A stretch of DNA of 64,000 nucleotides, taken from NCBI GenBank assembly GCA_963836055.1, contig CAWIID010000005.1, positions 17,042 to 81,041 on the forward strand, read 5' to 3'. Below the pieces are notes generated by a model. That model was not told the DNA's origin, did not search any database, and worked only from the letters and a program-made list of their open reading frames with translations. The position numbers and the translations under genes are program-made. How positions within the stretch are numbered: position 1 is the stretch's first letter; each line of letters opens with the position of its first letter. This document shows, piece by piece, positions 2,724 to 62,302 of this stretch. Origin of the DNA: an uncultured Alphaproteobacteria bacterium. Its GTDB lineage: Bacteria; Pseudomonadota; Alphaproteobacteria; Rhizobiales; Xanthobacteraceae.

Positions 2724-2732
2724 GATTGACCC

Positions 2733-12212: not shown

Positions 12213-12348
12213 CGAAGACGTTGCGGCAGGTGAAAAGTGTGGCAAGAACCACGAGGGTAGCCCGGTGAAGAGACATGATACTCCCTTACAAAACTGCCCC
12301 CCTGGGGAGGCGGGTGAAGACAGACCAACCACCGGCCTGTCGATGACT

Positions 12349-12831: not shown

Positions 12832-13152
12832 CGGCTACTCGTAGTGTTGGCACGATGGCTGTGAACTGTACGGAAAACGCGCGCCTAATTGGTTTAAAAC
12901 TGGCCAATTAACCCGCTGAATTATTTGGTAACATTAACTCGCCGCTACCGCTGCGCCGCCGCGCGCCGGCTGCACCATTTTCAGTTCGCTGGCAGCGACC
13001 ACCAACTTTCGGATTACGACCTCTGGCGGACAGACAGAGCGTAAACCGCGCATTAGCCTTGATGCTGGAGTCGCCCCCGGCTGTGCGATGCGGTCATCAT
13101 CGGTGCCGCGCGGCAATTCCTAAAGATCACGGATTTAAGGGGGAGATCGCCT

Positions 13153-16453: not shown

Positions 16454-18517
16454 ATGGAAACGGACATGCTGCATTCCGCAGCTAGTGCCCTGCTCATTAT
16501 TCTTGACCCGATACGCATGCTCTATTTGTTCGGCGGCGTATGCATGGGTCTCTCACTCGGCATTCTTCCGGGCATTGGCGGCGTCGCCGGAACGGCGCTG
16601 CTCCTGCCGTTCACCTACAATCTCGACCCGCCGACCGCTTTCGCACTGTTGCTCGGCCTCGGCGCGACAACGACGACCGCTGATCCGATCGCCGCGATTC
16701 TGTTCGGCGCACCCGGCCACGCCGCCTCCGCAGCGACGACACTCGACGGCTACCCGATGACGCGTCGCGGCGAGGCCGGCCGTGCGCTCGGTGCGTCGTA
16801 CATGGCCGCCTTGATCGGCGGCTTGTTCGGCGCCGCACTGATGGCAGTCGCGTTGCCCATCCTGCGTCCGATCATTCTCTACATCGGATCGCCGGAACTG
16901 CTTGGCGTTGCCGTGTTCGGCATTTCCATGGTGGCGGTGCTGTCCGGCAACGCGCCGCTGCGAGGCCTGACGTCGGCGTGCTTCGGCATGATGCTGGCGA
17001 TGATCGGTACCGATCCGCAATCCGGCACGCTGCGCTGGACCATGGATACGCTCTATCTGTGGGACGGCTTGCCGCTCGTCCCGCTGACGCTCGGCATCTT
17101 CGCTCTGCCCGAGCTGTGCGATCTCGCAATCGGCCGCATGGCAGTCGTGCAGGAAGGCCAAACGATCGACACCAAAACCGGCATGCTGCTTGGCGTCCAG
17201 GATTGCATGCGGCACTGGTTTCTGATTCTCCGCTGCTCGTGGATCGGTTCGGCGATGGGCGCCATTCCCGGCATCGGCGCCTCGGTGATCGATTGGATTT
17301 CCTACGGCCATGCGCTGCGCACCGAAAAAGGCGCGGCACAGACATTTGGCACGGGCGACGTGCGCGGCGTGATCGCCGCCGAGAGCGCCACCAACGCGCG
17401 CGAAGGCGGCGCACTGGTTCCGACCGTCGCGTTCGGGGTGCCAAGCAGCGCCGGCATGGCGATCCTGCTCGGTGCGTTCCTCATTCACGGTCTGGTTCCC
17501 GGGCCGGAAATGCTGACCAAGCACCTCGACCTGACCTATTCGATGGTGTGGAGCATCGCCATCGCCAACATCTTGGGCTCCGGCCTTTGCTTTGCATTCA
17601 GCGGTCAGCTCGCGAAGGTTGCGACGCTGCGCTACACGCTGTTCATGCCGGGCGTGCTCAGCCTCGTCTATATCGGCGCGTTCGAGGCCTCGCGGAATTG
17701 GGGGGACGTGTTCTCGCTCATTTCCTTTGGCATCCTCGGCTGGGCGATGAAGCATTTCAAATGGCCGCGCCCGCCGCTCGTACTCGGCTTCATCCTCGGT
17801 GACGTGCTCGAACGCTACATGTTCATCTCGATCGAGCGTTACGGCGTCAGCTGGATGCTCCGCCCGGTCGTGGTTGTCATGTTCGCCATGGCGGGATTGA
17901 GTCTGCTACGCCCATTGCTGCAGGACATTCGTAATCACGGCGGATTGAGGAAAATGGTGTCCCAGTGGGGGCACCCGCAGCTTGCCGGCGGTAATCTGTT
18001 CCCCGCTGCATTGCTATGCCTTTTCATTGTGATGATATCGCAGTCGTTCGAATGGGCATTCGCCGCAAGGATCATCCCAACCATCGTCGGCACCGGCGCC
18101 ATCCTGTTCTGCTCGCTGAGCTTGATCAACGACATTTTTGGACTGCACGAGCGAAATGGTGGCGTTGTTGTTGCAGGCGCGGGTGAGGGCAAGACGCAAA
18201 AAATCCACATGGACATCGCGTCCAAAACTTCGCACCTCCCGACCAAGACCATTTTGACCCGAGGATTCTTGTTCTTCGGCTGGATGGGAAGCTTTGCGGC
18301 GTGCATGGCGCTGATCGGACTCATTCCGACAGTGCCGATTTTCATCACCTCCTTTATGCGCATTGAAGGGCGCGAGCCCTGGAAGATCGTCATCCCGATG
18401 GCGTTCTGCGTGGTGCTCTTGATCTACGTGGTGTTCGACCAGCTCCTCGCGATCCCATGGCCGCCGACGTTGTTGGGCCTGTTCTTCCCGGCGTTGAAGT
18501 TCATACCCAGCGTTTAG
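16454..18517 (+). CDS. tripartite tricarboxylate transporter permease, TctA with C-terminal TctB-like extension (fusion)
   Basis: The first ~500 aa are TctA-like (GILPGIGG..., IDWISYGHA, GVPSSAGMAILLGAF). The last ~170 aa form four extra TM helices resembling TctB. Confidence 0.8.
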   Translation: METDMLHSAASALLIILDPIRMLYLFGGVCMGLSLGILPGIGGVAGTALLLPFTYNLDPPTAFALLLGLGATTTTADPIAAILFGAPGHAASAATTLDGYPMTRRGEAGRALGASYMAALIGGLFGAALMAVALPILRPIILYIGSPELLGVAVFGISMVAVLSGNAPLRGLTSACFGMMLAMIGTDPQSGTLRWTMDTLYLWDGLPLVPLTLGIFALPELCDLAIGRMAVVQEGQTIDTKTGMLLGVQDCMRHWFLILRCSWIGSAMGAIPGIGASVIDWISYGHALRTEKGAAQTFGTGDVRGVIAAESATNAREGGALVPTVAFGVPSSAGMAILLGAFLIHGLVPGPEMLTKHLDLTYSMVWSIAIANILGSGLCFAFSGQLAKVATLRYTLFMPGVLSLVYIGAFEASRNWGDVFSLISFGILGWAMKHFKWPRPPLVLGFILGDVLERYMFISIERYGVSWMLRPVVVVMFAMAGLSLLRPLLQDIRNHGGLRKMVSQWGHPQLAGGNLFPAALLCLFIVMISQSFEWAFAARIIPTIVGTGAILFCSLSLINDIFGLHERNGGVVVAGAGEGKTQKIHMDIASKTSHLPTKTILTRGFLFFGWMGSFAACMALIGLIPTVPIFITSFMRIEGREPWKIVIPMAFCVVLLIYVVFDQLLAIPWPPTLLGLFFPALKFIPSV

Positions 18518-33419: not shown

Positions 33420-34457
33420 TCATGCCGCTTCCCGGTCGAGCACTTGCAAGAGCTTCCGCAAGGCCTCTACCAACTCGTCATGACTGCGCTCATGGCCGGT
33501 TGGAGCCGGCGCACGCTGGAAGAAATGCGCAGGAAACGCTGGCATCTTGCGGTCGCTGCTGACGCCATCGTTAGCCGCACGTCGCCGGATCTTTTTCATC
33601 CGCGGCCGGCCGACGGTCCTGGTCAACATCGACCGCATGTATAACCCGGCGACCATCAATCCGATGACGCCAATCACAACAAGCCCTGTTGACATTTCAC
33701 CGGAAGGGGCCGCCGCCGGGACCGGACCAATGACTGATAGATCCGACGCTTTGTCGTTCCCCGCGTCATTCCCGGCCTGCGCAGACGGCGCGGAAGGCTT
33801 CTGTGCGGTGTCCTCGGGAACCGTTTCCGCAGGAGCAGTAGCGGCTGACACCGGCGGCTCAGGCCAAGCCGTAGTGTCGGCACTGGACTGCGATGGAGGC
33901 TCAGGCGATGCCGCTTTGCTGATGCTGCCTGTCGACGGCGGCTCAGGCCAGACGGTCGCATCGGAACGAATCTGTGGTGGCTCGGGCGACGCCGTTTTGC
34001 TGGTGCCAGCCGGTGACGGGGGCTGCGGCCAAGCAACGGTTTCAGCATTGGCCGGCGCCGGCGGGTCCGGCCAAGCCGCCGTTTCGGCACCCGCAGGTGC
34101 TGGCGCATCCGCTCGGGTCGCCACGCCGGCACGCGGCTTGCCGCTTGCTCGAACGCTACTTCGCGCATGTTCTGGCGTGTGCACGGGGCTGGATGCAGCC
34201 GATACGGGCGTCGCCGCTTCGGGTTGTTCCTGTGCGGCCGTTTCCGGGACCGCTTGGTCTTTCGGCCGCACATGCCAGCATTTGCGCTGCGTCGCGCGGT
34301 CTTCGTGGTAATACCAGTGGCTCCCCGCCGGCGCCGCCCCATTCGGCGCGGTGAGGCAATCATCTTCCGCGCGCGCGAAACCTGCCTTCAGGCTGACCCC
34401 CGCCAGCACCGTGACCAGCGCGGCAGCCACTGGAACCAATCCGGCCTTGGCCCTCAT
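33420..34457 (-). CDS. Pro-rich repeat protein with N-terminal signal and C-terminal TM anchor
   Basis: It starts MRAKAGLVPVAAALVTVLAGVSLKAGFARA, then CLTAPNGAAPAGSHWYYHEDRATQRKCW. It has five W-P-(D/Q/E)-P-P repeats and a late helix GLVVIGVIGLMVAGLYM. Confidence 0.6.
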   Translation of the reverse strand: MRAKAGLVPVAAALVTVLAGVSLKAGFARAEDDCLTAPNGAAPAGSHWYYHEDRATQRKCWHVRPKDQAVPETAAQEQPEAATPVSAASSPVHTPEHARSSVRASGKPRAGVATRADAPAPAGAETAAWPDPPAPANAETVAWPQPPSPAGTSKTASPEPPQIRSDATVWPEPPSTGSISKAASPEPPSQSSADTTAWPEPPVSAATAPAETVPEDTAQKPSAPSAQAGNDAGNDKASDLSVIGPVPAAAPSGEMSTGLVVIGVIGLMVAGLYMRSMLTRTVGRPRMKKIRRRAANDGVSSDRKMPAFPAHFFQRAPAPTGHERSHDELVEALRKLLQVLDREAA

Positions 34458-34701
34458 GTCCCCTCCGATACCAATGGCTCGGAAAAATTCTCCCTCGAAT
34501 TCGACCTCAATGCGTCGCGAATCCGGCAATTCCGTGTTTCCGGGTGCCTAAGCGGTATCCGAATCCCGATTCGCGCCGCCCATTGGCGCGAGAGCCCGGG
34601 CTTAAGGCTGTGCGAAGTCCCAAATAAATGTTTGCAACCTTACCATCCAACTTCTATACGTAATAATACAAGTCTAAAACATCAGTTCTAATTGTAATTC
34701 C

Positions 34702-34956
34702 ATGATTACTGCGGGCCAGCTCAGGGCTTCTCGGGCACTCCTTGGCATCGATCAACGTAAGCTCGCGGAAGCCGCAGGGCTCTCGCTGCCAACAATTCAG
34801 CGGATGGAGGCGAGCGAAGGGGTTGTACGCGGCAACGTCAATTCGCTGATGAAGCTCGTCGCCGCGCTTGATGCGTTCGGTATCGAGCTCATTTCCGACA
34901 ACGCCTCGACCCAAGCCGGTGGACGAGGCGTGCGACTTAAGAGGGCGGGGTCGTGA
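34702..34956 (+). CDS. XRE-family helix-turn-helix transcriptional regulator, first gene of the hyf-like operon
   Basis: ITAGQLRASRALLGIDQRKLAEAAGLSLPTIQRMEAS. Its stop overlaps the GTG start of the next gene (GTGA). Confidence 0.75.
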   Translation: MITAGQLRASRALLGIDQRKLAEAAGLSLPTIQRMEASEGVVRGNVNSLMKLVAALDAFGIELISDNASTQAGGRGVRLKRAGS

Positions 34957-36962
34957 CGCTCACGATTGTCCTTGTTTGCGCCGCGATCCTGCTCGCCCTG
35001 GCCCCGCTCGCCGTGGCGCTCAGCAGCTCAAGCACGGCGACGCGGGTCATCTATGGCGCCAGCATGGTCGCGTCGACGGTTTCGCTCGCAGCCGCACTGG
35101 CATACCTTCTCGGCGCATCGAGCCCTGAAAGCACCACCCTTCCGGTTGGCGTGCCCTGGCTTGGTGCGCATTTGCGCATTGACGCGCTCTCGGCCTTCTT
35201 CCTCATCGTGGTTGATCTTGGCGCCTTGAGCGCAAGCTTGTTTGCGCTCGGCTACGGCCAACATGAAACGTCGCCGGAGCGCGTGCTGCCGTTCTTTCCT
35301 GCCTTCCTCGCCGGCATGACGCTGGTCGTGCTGGCCGATGACGCCTTCACATTTCTGCTCTCCTGGGAATTCATGTCGCTGACCTCGTGGGCGATGGTGA
35401 TGTCGCATCACCGCGTGCCGGAGAATGTGCATGCCGGTTTTGTTTATCTGGTCATGGCGAGCTTCGGGACGCTCACTTTGCTGCTCGCCTTCGGCCTGCT
35501 CGCGGGACCCGATGGCCTTTATACGTTCGCGCAGATGCGCGACGCCCATCCGTCAGCGGCACTCGGCGCGCTGGCATTGATCCTCGCACTCATCGGAGCG
35601 GGTTCGAAGTCGGGTCTCGTTCCCCTGCACGCGTGGCTGCCGTTAGCGCACCCGGCCGCTCCAAGCCATGTTTCCGCCCTGATGAGCGGCGTGATGACGA
35701 AGGTCGCTGTCTACGGCTTTGTGCGCATCGTCTTCGATCTCGCGGGCAGCCCGGCGTGGTGGTGGAGCATCGTCGTGCTCGCAGTTGCCGGAGTGACGAC
35801 CGTGATGGGTGTGCTCTATGCGCTGATGCAGCACGACCTCAAGCGGCTGCTTGCCTATCACACCGTGGAGAACATCGGCATTATCTTCATCGGGCTCGGG
35901 CTTGCGCTCGCCTTCAAGGCGCACGGCATGCTGTTCCCTGCAGCGCTCGCACTGACCGCAGCGCTCCTCCACGTGTTCAACCACTCCTTGTTCAAGAGCC
36001 TCTTGTTCTTCGGCGCCGGTGCGGTGCTCACCGCAACCGGCGAGCGTGACATGGAGCACCTTGGCGGCCTCATTCATCGCATGCCGCGAACCGCATTCGT
36101 TTTTCTCGTCGGTTGCGTCGCGATCTCCGCGCTGCCGCCGCTCAACGGCTTCGTCTCCGAATGGCTGACATTCCAAGCGATCCTGCTGAGCCCGCAACTG
36201 CCGTCGTGGGGGCTTAAGCTTATGGTGCCGGCCGTCGGCGCATTATTGGCGCTTTCCGCCGCGCTGGCCGCCGCCTGCTTCGTCAAGGCCTACGGCGTAA
36301 CCTTTCTCGGCCGTCCGCGCACGCGCGCCGCCGAAGATGCTTCGGAAACCGACCAGTATTCGCTAGCCGCGATGATGCTTCTTGCATCGTTGTGCCTCGC
36401 TGCCGGAATCCTGCCCGGCCTGTTCATCGACGCGCTGGCGCCAGTCAGTTCCGCTCTGATCGGCGAGCACATGCCGGTTCAAATCGGCGCGCAATGGCTC
36501 TCCATCGTTCCGATTGCCGCCAGCCGCAGTTCCTACGACGGGCTTCTGGTATTTATGTTCATGGTCATCTCGGGCACTCTCGCGGCGTCCGCGATTCACC
36601 GCTTCGCTTCGGATCGGCTGCGCCGGGCGCCCACCTGGGACTGCGGCTATCCGGATGCTAGTCCGGCGACCCAATACTCGGCCATGAGTTTTGCGCAGCC
36701 GATCCGGCGCGTGTTCGGCACCATCGTATTTCGCGCGCGCGAGCATGCCGAGATACCGCCGCCTGGCGACACGCGGCCGGCGCGACTGACGGTGGAACTG
36801 CACGATCTTATCTGGGAGGCGATCTACGCGCCCATCGCTGTCGGCATCGGCTTTGCCGCCGACCGCCTCAATCGCCTGCAGTTTTTGACCATCCGCCAAT
36901 TCTTGACGTTGGTGTTCTGCACTCTCGTCGCTCTGCTGTTGGTGCTCGCCGCATGGTCCTGA
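34953..36962 (+). CDS. HyfB/NuoL-like proton-translocating antiporter subunit (Ehr-type complex)
   Basis: 669 aa and polytopic. It has the Mrp/NuoL motifs WEFMSLTSW and GSKSGLVPLHAWLPLAHPAAPSHVSALMSG. Confidence 0.88.
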   Translation: MTLTIVLVCAAILLALAPLAVALSSSSTATRVIYGASMVASTVSLAAALAYLLGASSPESTTLPVGVPWLGAHLRIDALSAFFLIVVDLGALSASLFALGYGQHETSPERVLPFFPAFLAGMTLVVLADDAFTFLLSWEFMSLTSWAMVMSHHRVPENVHAGFVYLVMASFGTLTLLLAFGLLAGPDGLYTFAQMRDAHPSAALGALALILALIGAGSKSGLVPLHAWLPLAHPAAPSHVSALMSGVMTKVAVYGFVRIVFDLAGSPAWWWSIVVLAVAGVTTVMGVLYALMQHDLKRLLAYHTVENIGIIFIGLGLALAFKAHGMLFPAALALTAALLHVFNHSLFKSLLFFGAGAVLTATGERDMEHLGGLIHRMPRTAFVFLVGCVAISALPPLNGFVSEWLTFQAILLSPQLPSWGLKLMVPAVGALLALSAALAAACFVKAYGVTFLGRPRTRAAEDASETDQYSLAAMMLLASLCLAAGILPGLFIDALAPVSSALIGEHMPVQIGAQWLSIVPIAASRSSYDGLLVFMFMVISGTLAASAIHRFASDRLRRAPTWDCGYPDASPATQYSAMSFAQPIRRVFGTIVFRAREHAEIPPPGDTRPARLTVELHDLIWEAIYAPIAVGIGFAADRLNRLQFLTIRQFLTLVFCTLVALLLVLAAWS

Positions 36963-37909
36963 TCCGCGATCTGGCCACTCAGGGCGCCCAGATGCTGCTG
37001 GTGCTGATCTTGGCGCCGCTGTTCACGGGTTTCGTGCGCAAGGTAAAGGCGCGTTTGTTGCGGCGGCAGGGTCCACCGCTGATCCAGCCCTATCTCGATC
37101 TCATCCGGCTCACACGCAAGGAGGTGGTGCTGGCGGAGAGCGCCTCGTGGCTGTTCCGCGTCATCCCCTATCTGATCTTCGCCGCCACTTGGGTTGCGGC
37201 GTCTCTGGTGCCGACATTCCGCACCGGGCTGTTGTTCTCGTGGTCGGCTGATCTCATTGCCATCGCGGCACTTTTGGGCAGCGGACGCTTTTTCCTGGCG
37301 CTCGCCGGAATGGATGTCGGCACGAGCTTCGGCGGCATCGGTTCAAGCCGGGAAGTGATGATCGCCTCGCTCGCCGAGCCGGCGATGCTCATGATGGTGT
37401 TCACGCTGGCGCTGATCGCCGGCTCGACCCAGCTTTCCACCATGGCCGCCTTCATGGCGTCGTCCGCGGTCGGGCTGCGCGTCTCGCTTGGGCTGGCGCT
37501 CATCGCCCTCATCATGGTGGCGATCGCCGAGAACAGCCGTATTCCGATCGACAATCCGGCGACGCATCTTGAGCTGACCATGGTGCACGAAGCGATGGTG
37601 CTCGAGTATTCGGGCCGGCATCTTGCGCTGATCGAGCTTTCGTCTTCGCTCAAGCTTATTCTTTACACCTCGCTGATCGCCTGCCTGTTCGTACCCTGGG
37701 GAATCGAGTCAGCGAGCGCAACAATGTCGACCCTGGCCGTCGGCGTTGCCGCCTACATCGGAAAGCTGGCCGTGGGCGGTTTCCTGCTCGCGCTGTTCGA
37801 GACGTCGATCGCCAAGATGCGCGTGTTTCGCGTGCCGGAATTTTTGGGCGCCGCGCTGATGCTCGGTTTGCTCGCAACTCTCTTGCGCTTCGTATCCGGG
37901 AGTTTCTGA
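36953..37909 (+). CDS. HyfC/HycD/NuoH-like membrane subunit
   Basis: 318 aa. It has the RKVKARLLRRQGPPLIQPY N-terminal motif and DNPATHLELTMVHEAMVLEYSG. Confidence 0.88.
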   Translation: MVLIRDLATQGAQMLLVLILAPLFTGFVRKVKARLLRRQGPPLIQPYLDLIRLTRKEVVLAESASWLFRVIPYLIFAATWVAASLVPTFRTGLLFSWSADLIAIAALLGSGRFFLALAGMDVGTSFGGIGSSREVMIASLAEPAMLMMVFTLALIAGSTQLSTMAAFMASSAVGLRVSLGLALIALIMVAIAENSRIPIDNPATHLELTMVHEAMVLEYSGRHLALIELSSSLKLILYTSLIACLFVPWGIESASATMSTLAVGVAAYIGKLAVGGFLLALFETSIAKMRVFRVPEFLGAALMLGLLATLLRFVSGSF

Positions 37910-38571
37910 TGACGGGGATCGATTTCGACGTCGCCCATCTGCTCGCCGGCTCGCTGGTGCTGGTCAGTTTCATGGAACTCTATCAGGACCGGCTTTATGC
38001 CCTGCTCAACATTTATGCCTTGCATGCCTTGGTGCTCGCGGCGTCGGTTGCCTGGCAGGCGTTCATCCAGGACGCGCCGCATCTCTATGTCACCGCGGCG
38101 ATCGCGCTGATCTTCAAGGCGATTATCATTCCCGTGGCGCTGCACCGGATGATTGTCCGGTTGGGTATCCATCGCGAGATCGAAAACGTGGTCGGCGTGG
38201 GCCCCGCCATGCTGGCCGGCATCGGGCTCGTTGCGTTGTCCATGGTGGTGATGTTGCGCGTAACCCAGGAAGCCGATCCGCTGGCGCGCGAGGACCTCGC
38301 TTTCGCGCTCTCGGTGGTGCTGCTCGGCCTTTTGATGATGGTGACGCGGCGCAACGCCGTGAGCCAAGTCGTAGGCTTCATGTCTCTCGAAAACGGCCTG
38401 GTCCTGGCCGCAACCGGCGCCAAGGGCATGCCGCTCGTGGTCGAGATCAGCGTCGCATTCTCCATCCTCATCGCCTTCATCGTGATCGGAATTTTTCTGT
38501 TCCGCATTCGCGAGCGCTTCGACAGCGTCGATGTGCAGGCGCTCGATCGTTTTCGCGGAGAGCGGCGATGA
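37909..38571 (+). CDS. HyfE-like (NuoK-related) membrane subunit
   Basis: 220 aa with 6-7 TM segments and the VVGFMSLENGLVLAA motif. It has ATGA overlaps at both ends. Confidence 0.8.
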   Translation: MTGIDFDVAHLLAGSLVLVSFMELYQDRLYALLNIYALHALVLAASVAWQAFIQDAPHLYVTAAIALIFKAIIIPVALHRMIVRLGIHREIENVVGVGPAMLAGIGLVALSMVVMLRVTQEADPLAREDLAFALSVVLLGLLMMVTRRNAVSQVVGFMSLENGLVLAATGAKGMPLVVEISVAFSILIAFIVIGIFLFRIRERFDSVDVQALDRFRGERR

Positions 38572-40022
38572 CTTTTTATGGCGTGACGTTCAATCCCTTA
38601 GCCGGAGTCCTCGCCGTTCCCGCTTTCGCCGCGGCGTTGTTCGCGGTACTGCCCGCGTATCGGCTGACCGCGCGGCTCAACGTGCTGGCGACAACCCTGA
38701 CTTTGCTGTGCGCGCTTTCGCTGTTCGTCGGAAAGCCACAGCCTAATTCCTATCTTCTGGTCGATGATCTCAACAGCACGTTCATCGTGCTCTCGACATT
38801 CGTGGGTTTCACCACAAGCATATTCAGCGCCAGCTATATCGGCCACGAACTCGACATCGGCCGGTTGACGCCGCAGTCCGTGCGCTTCTATCACGCGATG
38901 TATCAGGTCCTGATGTTCGCGATGAATCTCGCGCTCGCCGCCAACAATATCGGCCTGATGTGGGTGGCGATCGAGCTTGCCACCCTCACGACGGTGCTGA
39001 TGGTCGGCATCTACCGCACGCACGAGGCGCTCGAGGCGGCGTGGAAATATTTCATCCTCGGCAGCGTCGGCATCGCACTCGCGTTGTTTGGTACGATCCT
39101 GGTCTATATGGCGGCGCGGCCGGTCGTGGGTGAAGGTCTCGACGCCATGGTCTGGTCCGTGCTCGTCAAGCGCGCCGGCGCCTTCGACCCGGCGCTGCTC
39201 AATGTCGCGTTTGTCTTTCTGCTACTCGGCTACGGCACGAAAGTCGGGCTCGCGCCATTACACGCCTGGCTGCCCGATGCGCACGCCGAGGGCCCGACAC
39301 CGATTTCGGCGGTGCTGTCGGGATTACTGCTCAATGTCGCGCTTTACGCCCTGTTGCGCTTCAAGATGCTGCTGGCGGCAAACACCGGTGCGCTCGCGCC
39401 CGGCCCGTTGATGGTGACGCTCGGATTACTTTCACTCGTCTTCGCCGCGTTCATGCTTTACCGCCGGCGCGACATCAAGCGCATGTTCGCCTATTCGTCG
39501 ATTGAGCATATGGGCATCATCACCTTCGCCTTCGGCATGGGTGGACCGCTCGCCAATTTTGCCGGCCTGCTGCACATGACCATGCATTCGCTCACCAAGT
39601 CGGCGATATTTTTTGCCGTCGGCCATGTCGCCCAGGTCAAGGGGACGCAACGGATCGCCGACATGGGTGGCCTGACCGAAACCCATCCGGTGCTTGGCTG
39701 GGGGTTGATCCTGGGCGTCCTGGCCATCGCCGGACTGCCGCCGCTCGGCATTTTCATGAGCGAATTTCTGGTCATCAGCTCGACCTTCGCCCGCGCGCCG
39801 TTGCTCGCGCTTGTTCTCGTTTTTGGCATTCTCGTCGGCTTTGCCGCTCTGTTCCTGCGGCTCAACAGCATCGCGTTCGGCGAGCCGCGCGGTCCTACGG
39901 CCAAGGCGCAGGCCTCCTACGTCCCGATGTTCGCCCATCTTGGCCTCGTCCTGCTCGCCGGCATTTATATGCCGCCGGCGCTGGTCGCCTGGTTCCAGAA
40001 CGTTGCCGGACTGCTGGGTTAA
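38568..40022 (+). CDS. HyfF/NuoN-like antiporter subunit
   Basis: 484 aa with GTKVGLAPLHAWLPDAHAEGPTPISAVLSG and YSSIEHMG motifs. Confidence 0.88.
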   Translation: MTFYGVTFNPLAGVLAVPAFAAALFAVLPAYRLTARLNVLATTLTLLCALSLFVGKPQPNSYLLVDDLNSTFIVLSTFVGFTTSIFSASYIGHELDIGRLTPQSVRFYHAMYQVLMFAMNLALAANNIGLMWVAIELATLTTVLMVGIYRTHEALEAAWKYFILGSVGIALALFGTILVYMAARPVVGEGLDAMVWSVLVKRAGAFDPALLNVAFVFLLLGYGTKVGLAPLHAWLPDAHAEGPTPISAVLSGLLLNVALYALLRFKMLLAANTGALAPGPLMVTLGLLSLVFAAFMLYRRRDIKRMFAYSSIEHMGIITFAFGMGGPLANFAGLLHMTMHSLTKSAIFFAVGHVAQVKGTQRIADMGGLTETHPVLGWGLILGVLAIAGLPPLGIFMSEFLVISSTFARAPLLALVLVFGILVGFAALFLRLNSIAFGEPRGPTAKAQASYVPMFAHLGLVLLAGIYMPPALVAWFQNVAGLLG

Positions 40023-40026
40023 AACG

Positions 40027-41541
40027 ATGCCCGCGCTGATCGACATCATTCGCGGCAAACGAGTTGACGATCATCGCCCCTGGCCGCGTTTGATGGTCAC
40101 GACCGATGTTTGGAGCGAGGTTGCGACCGAACTCGCCGCCGGCCGCGCAACGCTGCTTGGCCTCTGGGGCGATTCCAGCGCCTCGTACGCAGTGCACATG
40201 GCGATCGTGGACCAACAGGACGCAAGCGACATCGCCGTCGTGAGCCTCGAATGTCCGAACGAAACGTTTCCGTCGGTTGGCGCGCTACACCCACCTGCCA
40301 TACGGCTCGAACGCGCCATCTTCAGTCTCTACGGGCTCCAACCAGTCGGCGCTCCGGATTTGCGACCGTGGCTCGATCTCGGCTTTTGGGATGTGCAACG
40401 GCCGCTCGGCACGCGCATCTCCGCGCCGGATGTAAGGCCGCCCTACCCGTTTTTGCCGGTGGAGGGTGAGAGCCTGCATCAAATCCCGGTCGGGCCCGTA
40501 CACGCCGGCATCATCGAGCCGGGACATTTTCGTTTCACCGCCGGCGGTGAGACCGTGGTGCGGCTCGAAGAACGCCTCGGCTATGTGCACAAGGGCATCG
40601 AGTCGCTGATGGCAGGGGCGGAGATCGGGCGGGCCGCACGCCTTGCCGCGCGCACGTCCGGCGACAGCACTGTGGCCTACGGAATCGCATTTGCTCATGC
40701 TGTCGAGGCGGCTTTGAACGTCGAAGCGCCGCCACGAGCGCAATATTTGCGTGCGCTGATGGCCGAGCTTGAACGGCTGGCAAATCACTTCGGCGACATC
40801 GGCGCCATCTGCAACGACGCCTCGTTCGCGCTCATGCATGCGCATTGTGGAATCCTGCGCGAACTGGTGTTGCGCACCGCCGAACGCTGCTTTGGCCATC
40901 GTCTGATGATGGATCGCGTCATCCCTGGCGGCGTCGGCGCCGATCTCACCTCATCCGGCATTGCGGTCCTGAAAGAGGCTTTGCAACATTTCCGGCTGCG
41001 GTTTCCCAGCCTGATCGAACTTTACGACAACACGGCCTCGCTGCAGGACCGCACCGCCCGCACCGGTATCGTAAGTGTCGAATTGGCCCGGCAGTTCGGA
41101 GCGTCCGGCTATGTTGGGCGCGCCAGCGGCCGCAACTTCGACGCACGGAAAAGCCCGGGTTACGCGCCGTACAACGAACTCAACTTCGACGTTCCGGTGC
41201 TGACGGCCGGCGATGTCAATGCCCGGGTGTGGATCCGTATCCGCGAAGTGGAGCAAAGCCTGGCGCTGATAGAGCAACTGATCGAGCGCCTGCCGACCGG
41301 ATCGATCAACACCGCACTCGATGGCGGCAGCGGCGAAGGTTTGGGCTTTGCGGAAGGCTTCCGCGGGGATGTGCTGGTCTCGGTGCGGCTCGACGGCGCA
41401 CGCATCGTGCGTTGCCATCTGCGCGATCCGTCGTGGTTTCAGTGGCCGCTGCTGGAGGCCGCAATCGAAGGCAACATCGTTGCCGACTTTCCACTCTGCA
41501 ACAAGTCGTTCAACTGCTCGTATTCGGGGCACGACTTGTAG
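40027..41541 (+). CDS. HyfG/HycE-like NuoC-NuoD fusion large subunit lacking the [NiFe] cysteine ligands
   Basis: It has the IPVGPVHAGIIEPGHFRF and ERLGYVHKGIE motifs. The position of the RxCGxCxxxH motif reads RTSGDSTVAY (40651-40680). The C-terminus reads FPLCNKSFNCSYSGHDL where HycE has PLIIGSLDPCYSCTDR. The ORF-track start at 39811 overlaps hyfF, so the ATG at 40027 is used. Confidence 0.85.
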   Translation: MPALIDIIRGKRVDDHRPWPRLMVTTDVWSEVATELAAGRATLLGLWGDSSASYAVHMAIVDQQDASDIAVVSLECPNETFPSVGALHPPAIRLERAIFSLYGLQPVGAPDLRPWLDLGFWDVQRPLGTRISAPDVRPPYPFLPVEGESLHQIPVGPVHAGIIEPGHFRFTAGGETVVRLEERLGYVHKGIESLMAGAEIGRAARLAARTSGDSTVAYGIAFAHAVEAALNVEAPPRAQYLRALMAELERLANHFGDIGAICNDASFALMHAHCGILRELVLRTAERCFGHRLMMDRVIPGGVGADLTSSGIAVLKEALQHFRLRFPSLIELYDNTASLQDRTARTGIVSVELARQFGASGYVGRASGRNFDARKSPGYAPYNELNFDVPVLTAGDVNARVWIRIREVEQSLALIEQLIERLPTGSINTALDGGSGEGLGFAEGFRGDVLVSVRLDGARIVRCHLRDPSWFQWPLLEAAIEGNIVADFPLCNKSFNCSYSGHDL

Positions 41542-41656
41542 GGAGCAAAGGACGACACTATGCGCAGAAAGCTTTTCGAGGGCTTGACGCACCGTCCCCT
41601 CACCGAAGCGCCGCCGCTCATCGAGCGACGAGGCGCGTGACGAGCTTGCCAGGCAA

Positions 41657-42094
41657 TTGGATCGCGCGGCGCGGCGGCGCTTGGGACGAAGCCTGTCGAT
41701 CCGCGAGGTGGACGCCGGCTCATGCAACGGCTGCGAGCTCGAAATCAATGCGCTCAATAATGCGTTCTACGATCTCGAGCGCTTTGGCCTGCGCTTCGTC
41801 GCCTCGCCGCGCCACGCCGACGTGCTGCTGGTGACGGGACCGGTGACCAAGAACATGCGCGAGGCGCTGGAGCGGACCTACCGCGCAACGCCGGACCCCA
41901 AGTGGGTGGTGGCGGTGGGAGACTGTGCGCTGGACGGCGGGATTTTCGCGGGCAGCTACGCCGTCACCGGAGGCGTTTCGAATGTGGTCCCGGTCGATCT
42001 GCATATTCGCGGCTGCCCGCCGTCGCCCACCGAACTCCTGAAGGGATTGATCGCGCTGCTGGATCATGCAGGCAATAAAACCAGCGTGGCCTGA
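41657..42094 (+). CDS. HyfI/HycG/NuoB-like [4Fe-4S] small subunit (N-terminus possibly longer, see findings)
   Basis: The GSCNGCE, GDCA and GCPP cysteine motifs are all present. The listed start is a TTG. Confidence 0.85.
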   Translation: MDRAARRRLGRSLSIREVDAGSCNGCELEINALNNAFYDLERFGLRFVASPRHADVLLVTGPVTKNMREALERTYRATPDPKWVVAVGDCALDGGIFAGSYAVTGGVSNVVPVDLHIRGCPPSPTELLKGLIALLDHAGNKTSVA

Positions 42095-42137
42095 AAGACC
42101 ATGGTCCGTGATCGGCAAGGATCGCCATGAGGATCGC

Positions 42138-42678
42138 TCACTGCCCTCCTCGGCTTGGCAAAGGCACATCGAAGCAGCCGTTGACCATGGCCATCATCGA
42201 GTAATAGCCGCAGAGCGTGACGATCTCGATCAGTCCATGCAAGCCGAACCGGCCGACGGCCCGTATCCTGCAACGCCTGCGGGATCGAACGATAGGCAAA
42301 GGCGCAATCGGCGATCTGGCTCACCATGTCGAAGGGCGCGGCAAACTCTTTGCTGCCGGCCTCGATACCGTTGATGAGGCCGTCCTGCAGGCCGGCTGCG
42401 CGCGCCGCGGCGACGTGATCGGCCCACACGAAGGCGACGCCTGAGCGTTTAGCGAGCATCAGGACGACGAACTGATAGACCTCGCGCGGCAGTGCCGATT
42501 CAAACTTGTAATAATAGCCGAGCTGCTCGATGAGCCGTGCAAGTTGAGGATGATTGAGCAGCGGGATATAGGGGCCGAGATGGTCGACCCCTTTGGCCTT
42601 CCGCCTGGTCAGAATGTCTTCATAGATTGCGCGGCCTTCGCCTGCGAGCGTCGCAGTCGGATCGGGAAGACTTGCCAC
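42138..42678 (-). pseudogene. carboxymuconolactone decarboxylase (AhpD-like) family protein, frame-disrupted at CCC 42260-42262
   Basis: ORF 42064..42678 is CMD-like up to ...AFAYRSIPQALQDT. The natural continuation VGRFGLHGLIEIVTLCGYYSMMAMVNGCFDVPLPSRGGQ* is in the adjacent frame, with its stop at 42138-42140. Confidence 0.7.
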
Positions 42679-42687
42679 GCCGTTCTC

Positions 42688-44400
42688 CTATTCGTGATAG
42701 GACCACGCCCGCGCGCCGGCGTTGAAGTCGTAAACCGGCGTCGGGCAGTTTTTGTCGGCCTTGACGTCGATCACCACTGTGGCATCCGCAGCGAGGGCCT
42801 TAGCGAACGTCTCCCCGAGAGCCGCGGGGTCGGTCACTGTCATGCCCTGCGCGCCGAGTGAGCGCGCGAAGCCGGCCCAGTCGTGATCGGGGATTGTGGT
42901 CAATTCCGACGGCAACGGACCATACTGATGCGCGCGCAGCCAGACATTGCCGAGCGCGCCGTTGTTCAGCACCACGTAAATGATCGGCAGGCGATAGCGC
43001 GCGGCAGTCTGCACGTCCATGCCGTGCATCTGCATGCAGCCGTCGCCGGTCATGACGGCGACGCGGCGGTCGGGCCGCGCGCATTGCACTCCGATCGCCG
43101 CCGGAATAGCCCAGCCCATCGGGCCGAGATTGGTCGCTGAGATGTAAGTACGCGGCTCATAGGCGCTCCAATAGTGTCCGGCAAACGCCCGATGCGCGCC
43201 GGAATCGACCAGCACGACGCCGTCGCGCGGGAACGCTTCGCGTAACGCGGTCACAGCCGCGGCGGGGTGGATCGGGCGCGTCGCTCGGCTGCAATTCTCG
43301 GTGTCGTAAAGCCGCGGACCGGCTTTGATGGAAGCGACCCAAGACTGCCGCGCCGATTGGCTGCGCGCGAGCGCGGCCGCGGCTGCCCCGTCGTTGTGGC
43401 TCAACACGTCGAGGAAGGCGCGGCAACTTCCCGGCACCACATGGCCCGCGGTGCCGCCCGAAGTGATTTCATGCATGTCGGTGTTGACATGGATCATCAG
43501 CGCCTTCGATTTTTCCCGCAACGTCCAATGCATCGTATCGCGCTCGTTCAGCCCCGAGCCGAGGATCAGCAGAACGTCGAGATCGCCCGCGAGAAGCGCG
43601 GCGGTTGCGTGTCGCGTGCCGGCATAGCCAAAAACGCCAAGCGACAGATCATGGTCTTCGGGAAAGACGCCCTTGGCCCGAAGCGTGGTCGCGACCGGGA
43701 TCGACCAGCGCTCGGCCACCGCCTTCAACGCAGCAGCAGCGGTATCGTGCTCGATGCCAGCACCGGCCAGGATCGCGACACGCGGACCTTCGCCCAAAAA
43801 TTCGATGACCTTTTCCGCCGCCGGCAGATTGAGCGGCGTGACATCGTCGAAGAACTCGCGGACCGGCGCGTAGTCGGCGCTGCAGTCCGACATCAGCGCG
43901 TCGTGAGTCAGCGAGAAATGCACCGGGCCGCTCGGCTGGGCCAGCATCGAGGTCAAACCGTAACGAAACCAATGAGCAAGATTCTTGGCGCTCGCGACCG
44001 TCATCGACAGCCGCGTGACCGGCCGCATGATGGACGTGTCGTCGAGCGACGCCTGGCTGGCATCCTGGAATTCGCCGAGACCCTCCATGTCGATCGGAAT
44101 CTCGCCGCTGAGCACCAGGATCGGCGAGGAATCCGTTTTGGCCGCTGCCACCGCGGTCGTCATATTGCAGAGACCTGGACCGCCGATGCCGAGCGCGGCG
44201 CCGAACCGTCCGCTGGCGCGTGCATAGCCATCAGCCATATAGGCGGCGCCGCCTTCATGGGTGGCGACAATCGGCTTAAGGCCCGGATGACGGGAGAGAG
44301 CCGGCAGGAAAGGATCGACCAGACCGCCGGGAACCATGAACAGGTGGTCGATACCCTCGCGTATGAGAGCGTCGAGAACAAAATCTGCGCCGGCCGCCAT
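42688..44400 (-). CDS. thiamine-diphosphate-dependent enzyme (acetolactate synthase large-subunit-like)
   Basis: 570 aa. It has an N-terminal Pyr domain (HEGGAAYMADGYAR), a central domain and a C-terminal PP domain (GDGCMQMHGMDVQTAARYRLPIIYVVLNN). Confidence 0.85.
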   Translation of the reverse strand: MAAGADFVLDALIREGIDHLFMVPGGLVDPFLPALSRHPGLKPIVATHEGGAAYMADGYARASGRFGAALGIGGPGLCNMTTAVAAAKTDSSPILVLSGEIPIDMEGLGEFQDASQASLDDTSIMRPVTRLSMTVASAKNLAHWFRYGLTSMLAQPSGPVHFSLTHDALMSDCSADYAPVREFFDDVTPLNLPAAEKVIEFLGEGPRVAILAGAGIEHDTAAAALKAVAERWSIPVATTLRAKGVFPEDHDLSLGVFGYAGTRHATAALLAGDLDVLLILGSGLNERDTMHWTLREKSKALMIHVNTDMHEITSGGTAGHVVPGSCRAFLDVLSHNDGAAAAALARSQSARQSWVASIKAGPRLYDTENCSRATRPIHPAAAVTALREAFPRDGVVLVDSGAHRAFAGHYWSAYEPRTYISATNLGPMGWAIPAAIGVQCARPDRRVAVMTGDGCMQMHGMDVQTAARYRLPIIYVVLNNGALGNVWLRAHQYGPLPSELTTIPDHDWAGFARSLGAQGMTVTDPAALGETFAKALAADATVVIDVKADKNCPTPVYDFNAGARAWSYHE

Positions 44401-45579: not shown

Positions 45580-45654
45580 GCCGGGTTAGCTCAGCGGTAG
45601 AGCAGCGGTTTTGTAAACCGTTGGTCGGGAGTTCAATCCTCTCACCCGGCACCA
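45580..45654 (+). tRNA. tRNA-Thr (anticodon TGT), encoded CCA
   Basis: GCCGGGTTAGCTCAGCGGTAGAGCAGCGGTTTTGTAAACCGTTGGTCGGGAGTTCAATCCTCTCACCCGGCACCA folds as a cloverleaf by inspection. Confidence 0.93.
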
Positions 45655-45661
45655 CCGCTAG

Positions 45662-46932
45662 CAGTCTGCTGAAAAACCGCTCGCCACGACGGGAGTTTGC
45701 TGATTCAGTTTTGTAAGACAAATCGGCGGAGGCTTGCATGCGCGGCGCATTTGTGGATCAGGGCCGGTTGTTTTCGTACATTTCGCCGGAGGCGCGGGTT
45801 CCGAAGAGCCACCCGTTGCGGAAGATTCGAGAGCTTGTCCGTGATGTGTTGAGCGAACTGAGCCGCAGCTTGGAGAAGCTGTACGCGAGCGAAGGACGCC
45901 CCTCGGTTCCGCCGGAACAATTGCTCAGCGCGTTGCTGCTGCAGGTGTTCTACGGCATCCGTTCGGAGCGGCAGTTGATGGAACAACTGGATTACAATCT
46001 TTTGTACCGCTGGTTCGTGGGACTTTCGCCCGACGATCCGGTCTGGGATCCGACCAGCTTCACCAAGAACCGCGACCGGCTGCTGCACGACGGCGACGTA
46101 TTCGCCAAGTTCATGACCAAGCTTCTGAACCATCCGCAGGTCAAGCCGCTGTTGTCGGACGAGCATTTTTCTGTGGATGGCACGCTGATCGAGGCCTGGG
46201 CCTCGCAGAAGAGCTTTCGCCCTAAGGACGGCAGCGACGACGATGGCGCCAACTTCCACGGCCAGAAGCGCAAGAACGACACCCATGCCAGCACCAGTGA
46301 TTCCGACAGTCGCCTTTATCGCAAGGCCGCCGGGCGGGAGGCAAAGCTGTCCTACATGGGCCACGCCACTATGGAGAACCGGCATGGGCTGGCGGTCGCC
46401 GGCATGGTCACGCTCGCCAACGGCACCGCCGAGCGTCGCGCCGCCGAGAGGATGCTCAAAGCCAAGGCCAAGCAGGCCGGCCGCCGCATCACCGCCGGCG
46501 CGGACAAAGCCTATGACACGGCCGATCATGTCGCCAAGCTTCGCGCCCTCAACGTCACACCGCACGTGACGCAGAACGACGGCGTCACCAAGACCGGCAA
46601 GCGCCGCCGCAGCGCCATCGACCAACGGACGACGCGCCACCAAGGCTACGGCATGTCGCAATCGCGCCGCGCCATGATCGAATGCCTGTTCGGCTGGGGC
46701 AAGCAGCACGGCACCATGCGCAAGACCAAACATCGCGGCATCGCCAACGTCGCTGCCGACTTCCTGCTCAACCTGATCGCCTACAACCTAATTCGCATTC
46801 CTAAACTGATCGCAGCATAGCAAGCAGGCGTTCAGGGACCAAAGGCGCCGCTCGAATACATCGCCAGAACCGCCCACCCTCTTCAAACAACAAAGAGCAA
46901 CGGCCCCAAATTCCAGGTTTTTCCGCAGACTG
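45662..46932 (+). mobile_element. IS5-family insertion sequence (1271 bp) with ~20-bp terminal inverted repeats and CTAG target-site duplication
   Basis: The left end reads CAGTCTGCTGAAAAACC. The right end reads GGTTTTTCCGCAGACTG, which is its reverse complement with one mismatch. CTAG is present at 45658-45661 and 46933-46936. It contains a single DDE transposase ORF. Confidence 0.85.
45738..46820 (+). CDS. IS5-family DDE transposase (InsH N-terminal domain + DDE_Tnp_1)
   Basis: It has HPLRKIRELVRDVL...GRPSVPPEQLLSALLLQVFYGIRSERQLMEQLDYNLLYRWFVGL, SVDGTLIEAWAS, AGADKAYD and a C-terminal LIAYNLIR. Confidence 0.93.
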   Translation: MRGAFVDQGRLFSYISPEARVPKSHPLRKIRELVRDVLSELSRSLEKLYASEGRPSVPPEQLLSALLLQVFYGIRSERQLMEQLDYNLLYRWFVGLSPDDPVWDPTSFTKNRDRLLHDGDVFAKFMTKLLNHPQVKPLLSDEHFSVDGTLIEAWASQKSFRPKDGSDDDGANFHGQKRKNDTHASTSDSDSRLYRKAAGREAKLSYMGHATMENRHGLAVAGMVTLANGTAERRAAERMLKAKAKQAGRRITAGADKAYDTADHVAKLRALNVTPHVTQNDGVTKTGKRRRSAIDQRTTRHQGYGMSQSRRAMIECLFGWGKQHGTMRKTKHRGIANVAADFLLNLIAYNLIRIPKLIAA

Positions 46933-60412: not shown

Positions 60413-62302
60413 CTAAGGCTCGCCTGCCACCACTTGTCGGCTCAGCAAAGCATCAAGAACATCGTCCGCCAACTGCTCCGGCGACCGGCCGATCGTGAGC
60501 AGATGCACTTCGGGATTTTCGGGTGGCTCGTAGGGCGCGTCGACGCCCGTGAAATTCTTCAACGCCCCCGCCCGCGCCTTGGCGTAGAGCCCTTTCGGAT
60601 CGCGCGCCATACAATCCTCGATCGGCGTGTCGACGAAGACCTCAATGAATTCGCCGGGCTCGACCAAGCTGCGGACCATATCGCGCTCGGCCCGGTAGGG
60701 CGAAATGAACGAACACAGTACGATCAGGCCGCTCTCGACCATCAGTTTGGCAACCTCGCCGACGCGGCGGATATTCTCGACCCGATCCGCCTCGGTGAAG
60801 CCTAGATCGCGATTGAGGCCGTGGCGGACATTGTCGCCGTCAAGCAGCGTCGTGTGGTGGCCGCGCGCGTGCAGCCGCTGCTCAACGATATTGGCGACCG
60901 TCGACTTGCCGGCGCCGGACAGGCCGGTGAACCAGACGATCGCCGGCCTTTGCTTGTTCAGAGCGGCACGTTCGGCCTTGCCGATCAAGAGCGGCTGCCA
61001 ATGGATGTTGGTACCGCGCCGCAGGCCGAAAGCGATCATTCCGGCGCCGACGGTATGGTTGGTAAATCGATCGATGATGATGAACGCGCCGGTCTTCCGA
61101 TTGTCCTCGTACGGATCGAAAGCAACGGGAAACGCGGTCGATAGGTTGCAAAACGCGATGTCGTTGAGTTCGAGCTTTGCCGCCGCGAGATGCTGGCGGG
61201 TATTGACGTCGATCCGGTACTTAATCGCGGTGATGGTGATCGGCGTTGTTTTGGTGCCGATCCGGCTCAAGTACGACCGGCCAGGCAAAAGCGGCTCGTC
61301 GCTCATCCAAATGATGTGGGCGGCGAATTGATCCGAGACTTCCGGCCGTACCTTCGGACCGACCAGAACATCGCCCCGCCCGATGTCGAGTTCATCCGTG
61401 AGCGTGATCGTCACGGCGTCGCCGGCGACCGCGGACGCCGATGGTCCATCGTAGGTGACGATCTGCGCAACCTTGGAAATTCGCCCTGAGGCGGCCTCGA
61501 CGATGGGGTCGCCCACACTGAGCTGCCCTGATGCAACAGTCCCTGCGTAACCGCGGAAGTCCTGGTTCGGTCGATTGACCCATTGCACCGGAAATCGAAA
61601 CGGTTTCGCGAGATTCTCGCTGTCGACGTCGACCGTCTCCAGGTAGTGCAACAGCGCAGGCCCCCGATACCACGGTGTATTGCCCGACACCGTGGTCACG
61701 TTGTCGCCAAAGCGCGCCGAGATCGGAATCGGGACAATGGAGGTGAAGCCCAAATCGCTGGCAAACGCCGTGTAATCGCCGACGATGCGATCGAAAGTCT
61801 CCTCCTGGTAGTGAACCAAGTCGATTTTATTGACCGCCACGACCACCTGACGGATGCCGAGCAGCGAGCAGATCAGGGAGTGCCGTCGGGTCTGCACCAG
61901 GACGCCCTTGCGCGCATCGACGAGGATGATGGCGAGTTCGGCCCCGGACGCGCCGGTGGCCATATTTCGGGTGAATTGCTCATGGCCGGGCGTATCGGCG
62001 ACGATGAACGATCGCCTGGTGGTGGAAAAAAACCGATAGGCGACATCGATCGTAATGCCCTGCTCGCGCTCGGCTTCGAGGCCGTCCACGAGTAATGCAA
62101 AATCAAGGTCCTCGCCCGTGGTGCCGTGGCGGACCGAGTCTTTCGCCAGGGCCTCCAATTGATCCTCGAAGATGAGCTTCGAATCGTGCAGCAGCCGGCC
62201 GATCAATGTCGACTTGCCGTCGTCGACCGAACCGCAGGTGATAAAGCGCAGGAGATCCTTCGTCGCCGCCTGCTCGCGAGGGCGCGTGACCAGAACGTTC
62301 AT
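60413..62302 (-). CDS. cysNC: bifunctional sulfate adenylyltransferase subunit 1 / adenylylsulfate kinase (CysN-CysC fusion, NodQ-type)
   Basis: It has GTPase motifs ([21 protein letters not shown]) and a C-terminal APS kinase domain ([12 protein letters not shown]). Confidence 0.95.

Follow-up and report, generated by a model that had tools for sequence, protein, structure and literature searches.

A hyqRBCEFGI-type operon encoding a hydrogenase-4-like complex without nickel-iron ligands in an uncultured alphaproteobacterium

The 64-kb stretch of DNA considered here (contig CAWIID010000005.1; hereafter the window) comes from an uncultured soil bacterium of the Xanthobacteraceae and carries at positions 34702-42094 seven same-strand genes in the order R-B-C-E-F-G-I, which almost certainly represent an orthologue of the published hyqRBCEFGI operon. 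This operon of about 7.4 kb, with a regulator as the first gene, was described in Azorhizobium caulinodans under the name "endo-hydrogenase" (Ng 2009 PMC2650096, Ciccolella 2010 PMC2930871, Sprecher 2012 PMC3357923). According to these studies its large subunit HyqG has 504 residues (NuoC domain 1-156, NuoD domain 157-504) without CxxC motifs, its small subunit HyqI keeps Cys-55, Cys-58, and Cys-152, and the system is independent of hup/hyp (PMC2650096, PMC2930871, PMC3357923). The gene order, the 7,393-bp size, the HyqG length, and the cysteine numbering all match and therefore identify the locus as a hyq operon, the likeness to A. caulinodans resting on published descriptions and not on direct protein alignment. 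The novelty of the locus implied by the original prediction was thus not borne out: the operon architecture, the leading regulator, the absence of CxxC ligands, the missing accessories, and the autonomy from hup/hyp were all published in 2009–2012, and the locus itself adds little to them. As a whole, the explanation towards which we lean, if only slightly, is that of a hyq orthologue encoding a redox-coupled ion pump of non-[NiFe] type under HyqR autoregulation.

The list of open reading frames (ORFs) and the junction sequences were read, and the ORFs were then scanned with Pfam and NCBIfam profiles. All seven genes lie on the plus strand. The first cistron hyqR (34702-34956) encodes an 84-residue XRE-family helix-turn-helix regulator (HTH_3 1.5e-05, HTH_31 1.2e-05), and it is followed by hyqB (34953-36962, GTG start), which encodes a 669-residue antiporter-like membrane subunit resembling HyfB, HycC, and NuoL. 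Then come hyqC (36953-37909) for a NuoH/HycD-like membrane subunit of 318 residues (Pfam NADHdh 6.8e-38), hyqE (37909-38571) for a HyfE-like membrane subunit of 220 residues related to NuoJ/K, and hyqF (38568-40022) for a second antiporter-like subunit of 484 residues, similar to HyfF and NuoM/N. The peripheral subunits are encoded by hyqG (40027-41541), a NuoC::NuoD fusion of 504 residues (Complex1_49kDa 2.1e-43 and Complex1_30kDa), and by hyqI (41560-42094), a NuoB-like small subunit with a broken frame (Oxidored_q6 7.1e-36 as sequenced). The ORF list and the profile matches, which are far beyond chance, agree with the seven packed genes and the families originally assigned to them. The junctions also read as predicted, with the hyqR stop overlapping the hyqB start in GTGA at 34953-34956, a 10-nucleotide overlap of hyqB and hyqC, an ATGA overlap of hyqE and hyqF, and a 4-nucleotide gap between hyqF and hyqG; only the ATGA overlap claimed for hyqC and hyqE has to be replaced by TGATG with a 1-nucleotide overlap (stop 37907-37909, ATG 37909-37911). 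The hyqI ATG at 41560 lies 18 nucleotides past the hyqG stop.

Evidence on the nature of the complex comes from HyqG. In alignment with Escherichia coli HycE (PDB 7Z0S) the motif RVCGIC is replaced by RTSGDS and DPCYSC by NCSYSG, and all four Ni-Fe cysteine positions are occupied by other residues (S211, S214, S498, and G501). Among 83 orthologues three of these positions are invariant and S211 is found in 81, both CxxC motifs being absent from all 83. The loss of the Ni-Fe ligands, first noticed from the single sequence, is confirmed in this way, and a group 4 large subunit with intact L1/L2 motifs was not found, as both RxCGxC and DPCxxC are missing. At the same time Cys262, Cys463, Cys491, and Cys497 are each kept in at least 98% of the 83 orthologues, and the same holds for 20 of the 22 C-terminal residues and for G-D-S at 212-214. 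The chain terminates nine residues after the second motif begins, without a C-terminal extension; therefore a HycI-type protease would have nothing to cleave. The best solved match of HyqG is HycE (7z0s_E, 180 bits), followed by the 49-kDa subunits of complex I (about 120 bits) and Pyrococcus furiosus MbsL (90 bits), and the NuoD equivalog model gives 216 bits, under its cut-off of 360. An exact-sequence look-up of the window HyqG returned no match, and its AlphaFold model, built from a shallow input alignment of sequences at least 75% identical, is poor, with a mean pLDDT (predicted local distance difference test) of 42.6.

The surroundings of the operon are equally poor in hydrogenase partners. 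Pfam scans of the 60 other ORFs of the window revealed no hyp, hycI, fdhF, focA, or HycB/HycF-type gene, so that the predicted absence of hydrogenase accessories and formate hydrogenlyase partners from the operon and the window proved correct. Further, 84 related loci were read with a 10-kb flank each, and no HycB/HycF-type ferredoxin subunit, formate dehydrogenase, HycI, or hyp gene was detected in operon or flanks; the genes recurrent in these flanks are a second hyqR paralogue (18 loci) and a protein of about 250 residues (15 loci), and apart from hyqR none is broadly conserved. Because the Ni-Fe ligands are lost and no accessory or partner genes lie nearby, the locus fits the definition of hydrogenase-related complexes (Ehr) (PMC6349859), and its original assignment to a six-subunit hydrogenase-4-like complex of Ehr type is sustained. 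A bona fide group 4 [NiFe] hydrogenase of Hyf or formate hydrogenlyase kind, with partners and maturation genes elsewhere in the genome, is accordingly a very improbable reading: the passing of the NCBIfam "hydrogenase 4" equivalog cut-offs by two membrane subunits, the best solved matches to HycE and HycC of E. coli formate hydrogenlyase, and a weak NiFeSe_Hases match of HyqG (24.2 bits against a cut-off of 25.8) speak for it, but they are opposed by the CxxC motifs missing in the window and all 83 orthologues, the absent C-terminal extension, and the lack of HycB/HycF-type subunits at 84 loci and of hyp, hycI, fdhF, and focA in 64 kb.

HyqB scores 884 bits against the NCBIfam model "hydrogenase 4 subunit B" (NF005086, cut-off 667) and matches Proton_antipo_M at 3.6e-51; among solved structures it comes closest to E. 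coli HycC (7z0s_C, 228 bits), and the motifs read in the HycC alignment show that Glu in transmembrane helix (TM) 5, Lys in TM7, TM8, and TM11, and Glu in TM12 are kept. HyqF reaches 873 bits with "hydrogenase 4 subunit F" (NF005043, cut-off 533) and 8.9e-56 with Proton_antipo_M, and keeps TM5 Glu, TM7 Lys, TM11 Lys, and TM12 Glu according to motifs read in the MbsH and MbhH alignments. The matches of HyqE to "hydrogenase 4 membrane subunit" (NF008556, 4.4e-25, under the cut-off) and Oxidored_q2 (1.7e-4) are weaker.

On this basis the favoured reading, with chances that we consider about evenly balanced, is that Hyq is no longer a [NiFe] hydrogenase and would work as a non-hydrogenase redox pump. 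The Ser/Ser/Ser/Gly ligand positions in 83 orthologues together with the absence of hyp and hycI from the window count for a non-[NiFe] function, as do the missing ligands in 79 of 85 near cluster representatives and the reports of hyq without hup/hyp in Rhodocista and of activity that survives deletion of the 20-gene hup/hyp cluster; the conservation of the HyqG C-terminus and of G-D-S 212-214 at 98% or more points to a functional constraint on the pocket, and HyqB with all five canonical charged residues counts for pumping capacity. In the proposed mechanism HyqG and HyqI with one [4Fe-4S] cluster would form the peripheral part, and HyqC, HyqE, HyqB, and HyqF the membrane arm. The HyqI cluster would pass electrons between a cytoplasmic low-potential partner and a substrate in the remodelled HyqG/HyqI/HyqC pocket, and this redox reaction would be reversibly coupled to the movement of ions through HyqB and HyqF. 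NuoEFG, NuoI, and NuoA are absent from the operon, and because no electron-input module is encoded the low-potential partner would dock directly. The precedents would be complex I and the membrane-bound sulfane reductase (MBS) of P. furiosus, in which the Ni-Fe site was lost and another substrate acquired (quinone and polysulfide, respectively).

Several facts weigh against this reading. In complex I the quinone head group is liganded by His38 and Tyr87 (Thermus thermophilus numbering). The corresponding positions of HyqG are Ile163 and Gly212, and its β1-β2 loop EPGHFRF agrees with HycE and not with NuoD; with the ligands replaced and the loop HycE-like, a quinone site of complex I type is unsupported by sequence. 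HyqF has Asn where the TM8 Lys sits. No conserved redox partner gene was found in the flanks of the 84 loci, and thus the donor and acceptor are not identified by genomic context. Upstream of hyqR the copy of the palindrome that is discussed below as a predicted operator is degenerate, with 3 mismatches, though at the −34 position of its clade. Finally, in A. caulinodans a hup/hyq double mutant loses H2 recycling, which single mutants keep, and microaerobic H2 evolution is about 80% lower without hyq and does not need nifK (PMC2650096, PMC2930871, PMC3357923). The A. caulinodans deletions also removed hyqR, so that the H2 phenotypes could be indirect. The original statement that the donor and acceptor of such complexes had never been established experimentally holds only in part, since the deletion mutants provide in vivo evidence of Hyq-linked H2 uptake and evolution.

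These phenotypes are among the support for the view that Hyq is a true endo-hydrogenase facing the cytoplasm, which would oxidise or evolve H2 at a non-canonical, hyp-independent HyqG site, with the HyqI cluster exchanging electrons with the quinone pool and the reaction driven by, or driving, the proton-motive force. We regard this view, including its quinone-linked electron path, as unlikely. In its favour, the hyq deletion in A. caulinodans slows diazotrophic growth, a strain without the entire 20-gene hup/hyp cluster still recycles H2, the high microaerobic H2 output that depends on hyq persists in a nifK mutant, and Rhodocista was reported to carry hyq without hup/hyp and still to recycle H2, for which the authors presented no data. 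The pocket is also under very strong purifying selection, with Cys262, Cys463, Cys491, and Cys497 invariant in the alphaproteobacterial clade, and the HycE-like EPGHFRF loop is retained. If H2 turnover did occur at this nickel-free, hyp-independent invariant pocket, it would constitute a fourth kind of hydrogenase active site, which is a tentative proposal and a doubtful one; such a pocket would comprise S211-G-D-S214, Cys262, Cys463, and C491-NKSFN-C497-SYSG-x-DL, an assignment no firmer than the proposal itself. Against the endo-hydrogenase, all known hydrogenases depend on Cys-ligated NiFe, FeFe, or Fe-GP cofactors, the ligand positions are Ser/Ser/Ser/Gly, and most of the wider ligand-less family has other residues in place of Cys491 and Cys497. 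Since the former Ni-Fe site occupies the same place in the fold as the complex I quinone site, an H2:quinone enzyme would need two sites around one cluster. Moreover, the evidence is all whole-cell, from one laboratory, and based on deletions that removed hyqR too, and in the words of its authors a Ni-Fe site is "uncertain, if not unlikely" and the catalytic site is "speculative" (PMC2650096, PMC2930871, PMC3357923). Another candidate, in which Hyq runs in reverse to feed reduced ferredoxin to nitrogenase and H2 arises from nitrogenase, was rejected as the sole explanation in view of the H2 output of the nifK mutant.

The small-subunit gene raises a separate question. From its ATG at 41560 hyqI hits a stop after 26 codons, and the remainder lies in another frame up to 42094; not all seven frames are intact, and the original prediction, right about the NuoB-like family of the seventh gene, overlooked a one-base insertion in it. 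The extra base lies within 41618-41631, and deletion of any one base in this interval restores a 177-residue HyqI (Oxidored_q6 1.3e-35), in which Cys55, Cys58, Cys122, and Cys152 are the four [4Fe-4S] cysteines, invariant in 52 orthologues. The frameshift would impair the complex in this organism unless the extra base is an assembly error. That it is real and that the operon is a decaying remnant from which a functional complex is no longer made appears improbable to us, more so than the endo-hydrogenase. The extra base is missing from 9 of 9 aligned relatives, stands outside a homopolymer run, and is flanked by two substitutions; of the 83 loci compared the window alone starts its HyqI alignment at query residue 23 (79 start at residue 12 or before and three at residues 13-15), the lost N-terminal segment holds a conserved P-L-T-E..P motif, and the operator copy is degenerate. 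On the other side, the six other genes have unbroken frames and share 97-100% identity with their counterparts in the closest relative, a single-base insertion is a typical assembly error, and a 145-residue ORF from TTG 41657 with all four cluster cysteines remains without repair. In the assemblies that contain the nearest public relatives, L001 and L002, several genes are plainly split: at L001 8541-9996 hyqF is divided into 59 and 439 residues, and at L002 4926-9996 hyqB, hyqC, and hyqF are broken, which is typical of indel-rich assemblies and bears on how the frameshift in the window is to be read.

The regulator that heads the operon was also compared among the loci. The nearest solved relative of HyqR is a restriction-modification controller "C" protein (4yba_A, E 1.6e-4); C proteins are small dimers that bind palindromes ahead of their own operon. 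HyqR is 65-98% identical among related loci and adjoins the operon in nearly all of them, so the neighbourhood of the XRE gene is conserved. In about 55 loci it immediately precedes the operon on the same strand; of these, 18 in addition to the window have the 4-nucleotide RTGA overlap, and most of the rest have a gap to hyqB of up to about 20 nucleotides. A leading regulator, which had been considered unusual for such an operon, is consequently the rule in the hyq family. In 18 loci, mostly of Bradyrhizobium or near it, a hyqR copy is on the opposite strand, mostly convergent and downstream and often as a second copy, and it is divergent and upstream in L064 and L079. The second paralogue, about 70% identical to the hyqR of the window, is found convergent just downstream of hyqI in many Bradyrhizobium-type loci, for example at about 12150-12980 on the minus strand of L029, L033, L043, L047, L048, L051, L052, L061, L067, L068, L070, and L076.

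A 17-bp palindrome, TGATGT-N5-ACATCA, stands with at most 2 mismatches in front of 27 of 50 hyqR genes, compared with 6 of 1900 random 300-nucleotide segments and 19 of 2000 shuffles. Its positions cluster at −34 in the clade of the window or at about −97 elsewhere (for example, L003:4656-4672), and a related palindrome is present at −91 of several hyqR paralogues. It is probably the HyqR operator, and no mention of it was found in the published hyq papers. The copy in the window, ACAAGTCTAAAACATCA at 34668-34684 on the plus strand, is a candidate operator directly 3' of a candidate sigma-70-like promoter, TTACCA-16 nucleotides-AATAAT (34640-34667, plus strand), which lies 35 nucleotides before the hyqR ATG. 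Only this one sigma-70-like match was obtained in 34300-42700, about as many as chance would give, and its position before hyqR is suggestive only. HyqR would bind the palindrome beside the promoter and thereby autoregulate the operon, and translation of hyqR would be coupled to that of hyqB via the GTGA overlap. No other palindrome copy with at most 2 mismatches exists anywhere in the window, and therefore no further regulon member was found. In A. caulinodans a NifA- and sigma-54-dependent promoter was reported upstream of hyqR (Ng 2009 PMC2650096, Ciccolella 2010 PMC2930871, Sprecher 2012 PMC3357923). In the 300 nucleotides upstream of the window hyqR there is no sigma-54 site (TGGYRY-N5-TTGCW) and no NifA upstream activating sequence (UAS), and strict-pattern scans of 49 related loci for sigma-54 sites, NifA UAS, and FixK boxes were negative or at chance level, with NifA-UAS-like strings in just 2 of the 49. 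Because neither the window nor these relatives carry the signature, the NifA dependence shown in A. caulinodans is not general.

The distribution of the family is broad. A relative is encoded in 595 or more species-representative genomes, and soil metagenomes contain thousands of proteins with 75% identity or more. The carriers include Bradyrhizobium, Mesorhizobium, Rhizobium, Neorhizobium, Rhodopseudomonas, Methyloceanibacter, Devosia, and Hyphomicrobiaceae and, beyond them, metagenome-assembled genomes of Sphingomonadales, Casimicrobiaceae, and one Acidobacteriota. In the Ciccolella 2010 study (PMC2930871) hyq was stated to be confined to nitrogen-fixing microaerophiles; the family is far wider than this diazotroph-only claim. 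Wherever all six structural genes are present at a locus, which is the case in 70 loci, they stand in the order B-C-E-F-G-I. Among the nearest 50%-identity cluster representatives scorable at all four ligand positions 79 of 85 are ligand-less, and in most of this wider ligand-less family Cys491 is replaced by Ile or Val and Cys497 by Leu, the rest of the motif being kept. The six representatives that keep CxxC in both motifs (P0191, P0214, P0220, P0227, P0228, and P0249; 36-41% identity; e.g., RICGVC ... ELCYSC) group together in a rough neighbour-joining tree as a single clade nested within the ligand-less ones; they are probably true hydrogenases of group 4f type and could serve as an outgroup. 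Ehr complexes were reported to be close to group 4f hydrogenases, and the nesting agrees with this placement.

The other 60 ORFs of the window include genes for cytochrome bd oxidase, transporters, an enzyme dependent on thiamine pyrophosphate (TPP), a transposase, and sulfate activation. The presence of cydAB for the cytochrome bd oxidase subunits (1572-4304, minus strand) indicates a host equipped for low-oxygen respiration, like the microaerophilic hyq carriers of the literature. No known RNA element was recognised by Rfam within the operon or close to it, and just a tRNA in the window. A tRNA-Thr gene (45580-45654) is immediately followed by a DDE transposase gene (45738-46820; DUF772 and DDE_Tnp_1), past which the G+C content falls from about 0.63 to 0.57-0.59; the site, 3.5 kb beyond the downstream end of the operon, may mark the boundary of an integrated element. 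ARAGORN suggested in addition an 87-nucleotide tRNA-Tyr at 10487-10573 on the minus strand, which overlaps the start of a SpoU methylase ORF, is below the Rfam tRNA threshold, and is probably a false positive. The subunits TctA and TctB of the tripartite tricarboxylate transporter are usually separate; a single ORF of 687 residues at 16454-18517 contains a full TctA domain and a C-terminal TctB domain. At 60413-63241 on the minus strand lie a cysD-like gene (PAPS_reduct) and a fused cysN/cysC (GTP_EFTU and APS kinase), which are unrelated to hyq.

The importance of the question is determined by which of the readings holds. A nickel-free endo-hydrogenase, if true, would be major for hydrogenase chemistry and for soil H2 cycling, and such an H2 site would occur widely among aerobic Alphaproteobacteria of soils, far outside the nitrogen fixers; if the claim is false, these complexes would pump ions by means of some other redox couple. 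For the design of experiments the useful points are the width of the family, the general lack of NifA and sigma-54 signals, and the palindrome as the likely HyqR operator, and the present locus makes the function of Hyq or Ehr no more testable than cultured carriers already do.

Compared with known systems, E. coli formate hydrogenlyase (hydrogenase-3) and hydrogenase-4 have in common with Hyq the nearest solved subunits HycE and HycC, the EPGHFR loop, and the HycC-like charged transmembrane residues; however, HycE carries RVCGIC and DPCYSC, and formate hydrogenlyase needs HycB, HycF, FdhF, HycI, and Hyp, none of which is encoded in the operon or the window. Complex I (NuoB/CD/H/L/M/N) and P. 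furiosus MBS (PDB 6U8Y) share the core module and the loss of Ni-Fe ligands; they derive from a hydrogenase-like ancestor, and their proximal [4Fe-4S] cluster passes its electrons to a different substrate. Complex I differs by NuoEFG, NuoI, and NuoA, which are absent here, and by the quinone pair His38/Tyr87, which is Ile163/Gly212 in HyqG.

Mycobacterium tuberculosis Rv0081-Rv0087 is likewise an Ehr-like operon led by a transcription factor, although Rv0081 is of ArsR type and not XRE, and the gene order and subunit set differ from hyq. The organism that carries these Ehr-like hyc genes, with the transcription factor first, is said to lack Ni-Fe maturation genes (PMC6728331). The Ehr complexes in general are a broad class with varied subunits, presumed redox-coupled ion translocation, and sometimes an FdhA or NuoEF candidate partner nearby (PMC6349859). 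The locus shares with them the Mrp/antiporter-like subunits (HyqB and HyqF) and the ligand-less large subunit, and it is distinguished by membership in a tight alphaproteobacterial clade with seven fixed genes, clade-specific Cys491 and Cys497, and no conserved partner.

The closest correspondence is to hyq itself. With A. caulinodans the window shares the seven genes in the same order, the size of about 7.4 kb and the leading regulator, HyqG of 504 residues without CxxC and with Cys491 and Cys497 at the published numbers, HyqI with Cys55, Cys58, and Cys152 likewise, the lack of HyfA/HyfD equivalents and of linked hyp/fdh, the separation from other hydrogenase genes, and a HyqR starting with M-I-T, which for A. 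caulinodans is deduced from the published primer Hyq-B. The differences concern the internal HyqG cysteine (Cys262 here, Cys-258 as published) with a fourth invariant Cys463, the third HyqI cysteine at 122 and not 112, the lack of a NifA box, sigma-54 promoter, and FixK box, the frameshifted hyqI, and the uncultured soil host. Bradyrhizobium and Rhodopseudomonas loci encode HyqG 64-67% identical to that of the window. Rhizobium leguminosarum bv. viciae (now R. johnstonii for strain 3841) was named as a hyq carrier by the authors of the A. caulinodans studies (PMC2650096, PMC2930871, PMC3357923), and plasmid pRL11 of R. johnstonii 3841 has an identical layout, with 65-84% identity per protein and the same 4-nucleotide and 10-nucleotide overlaps.

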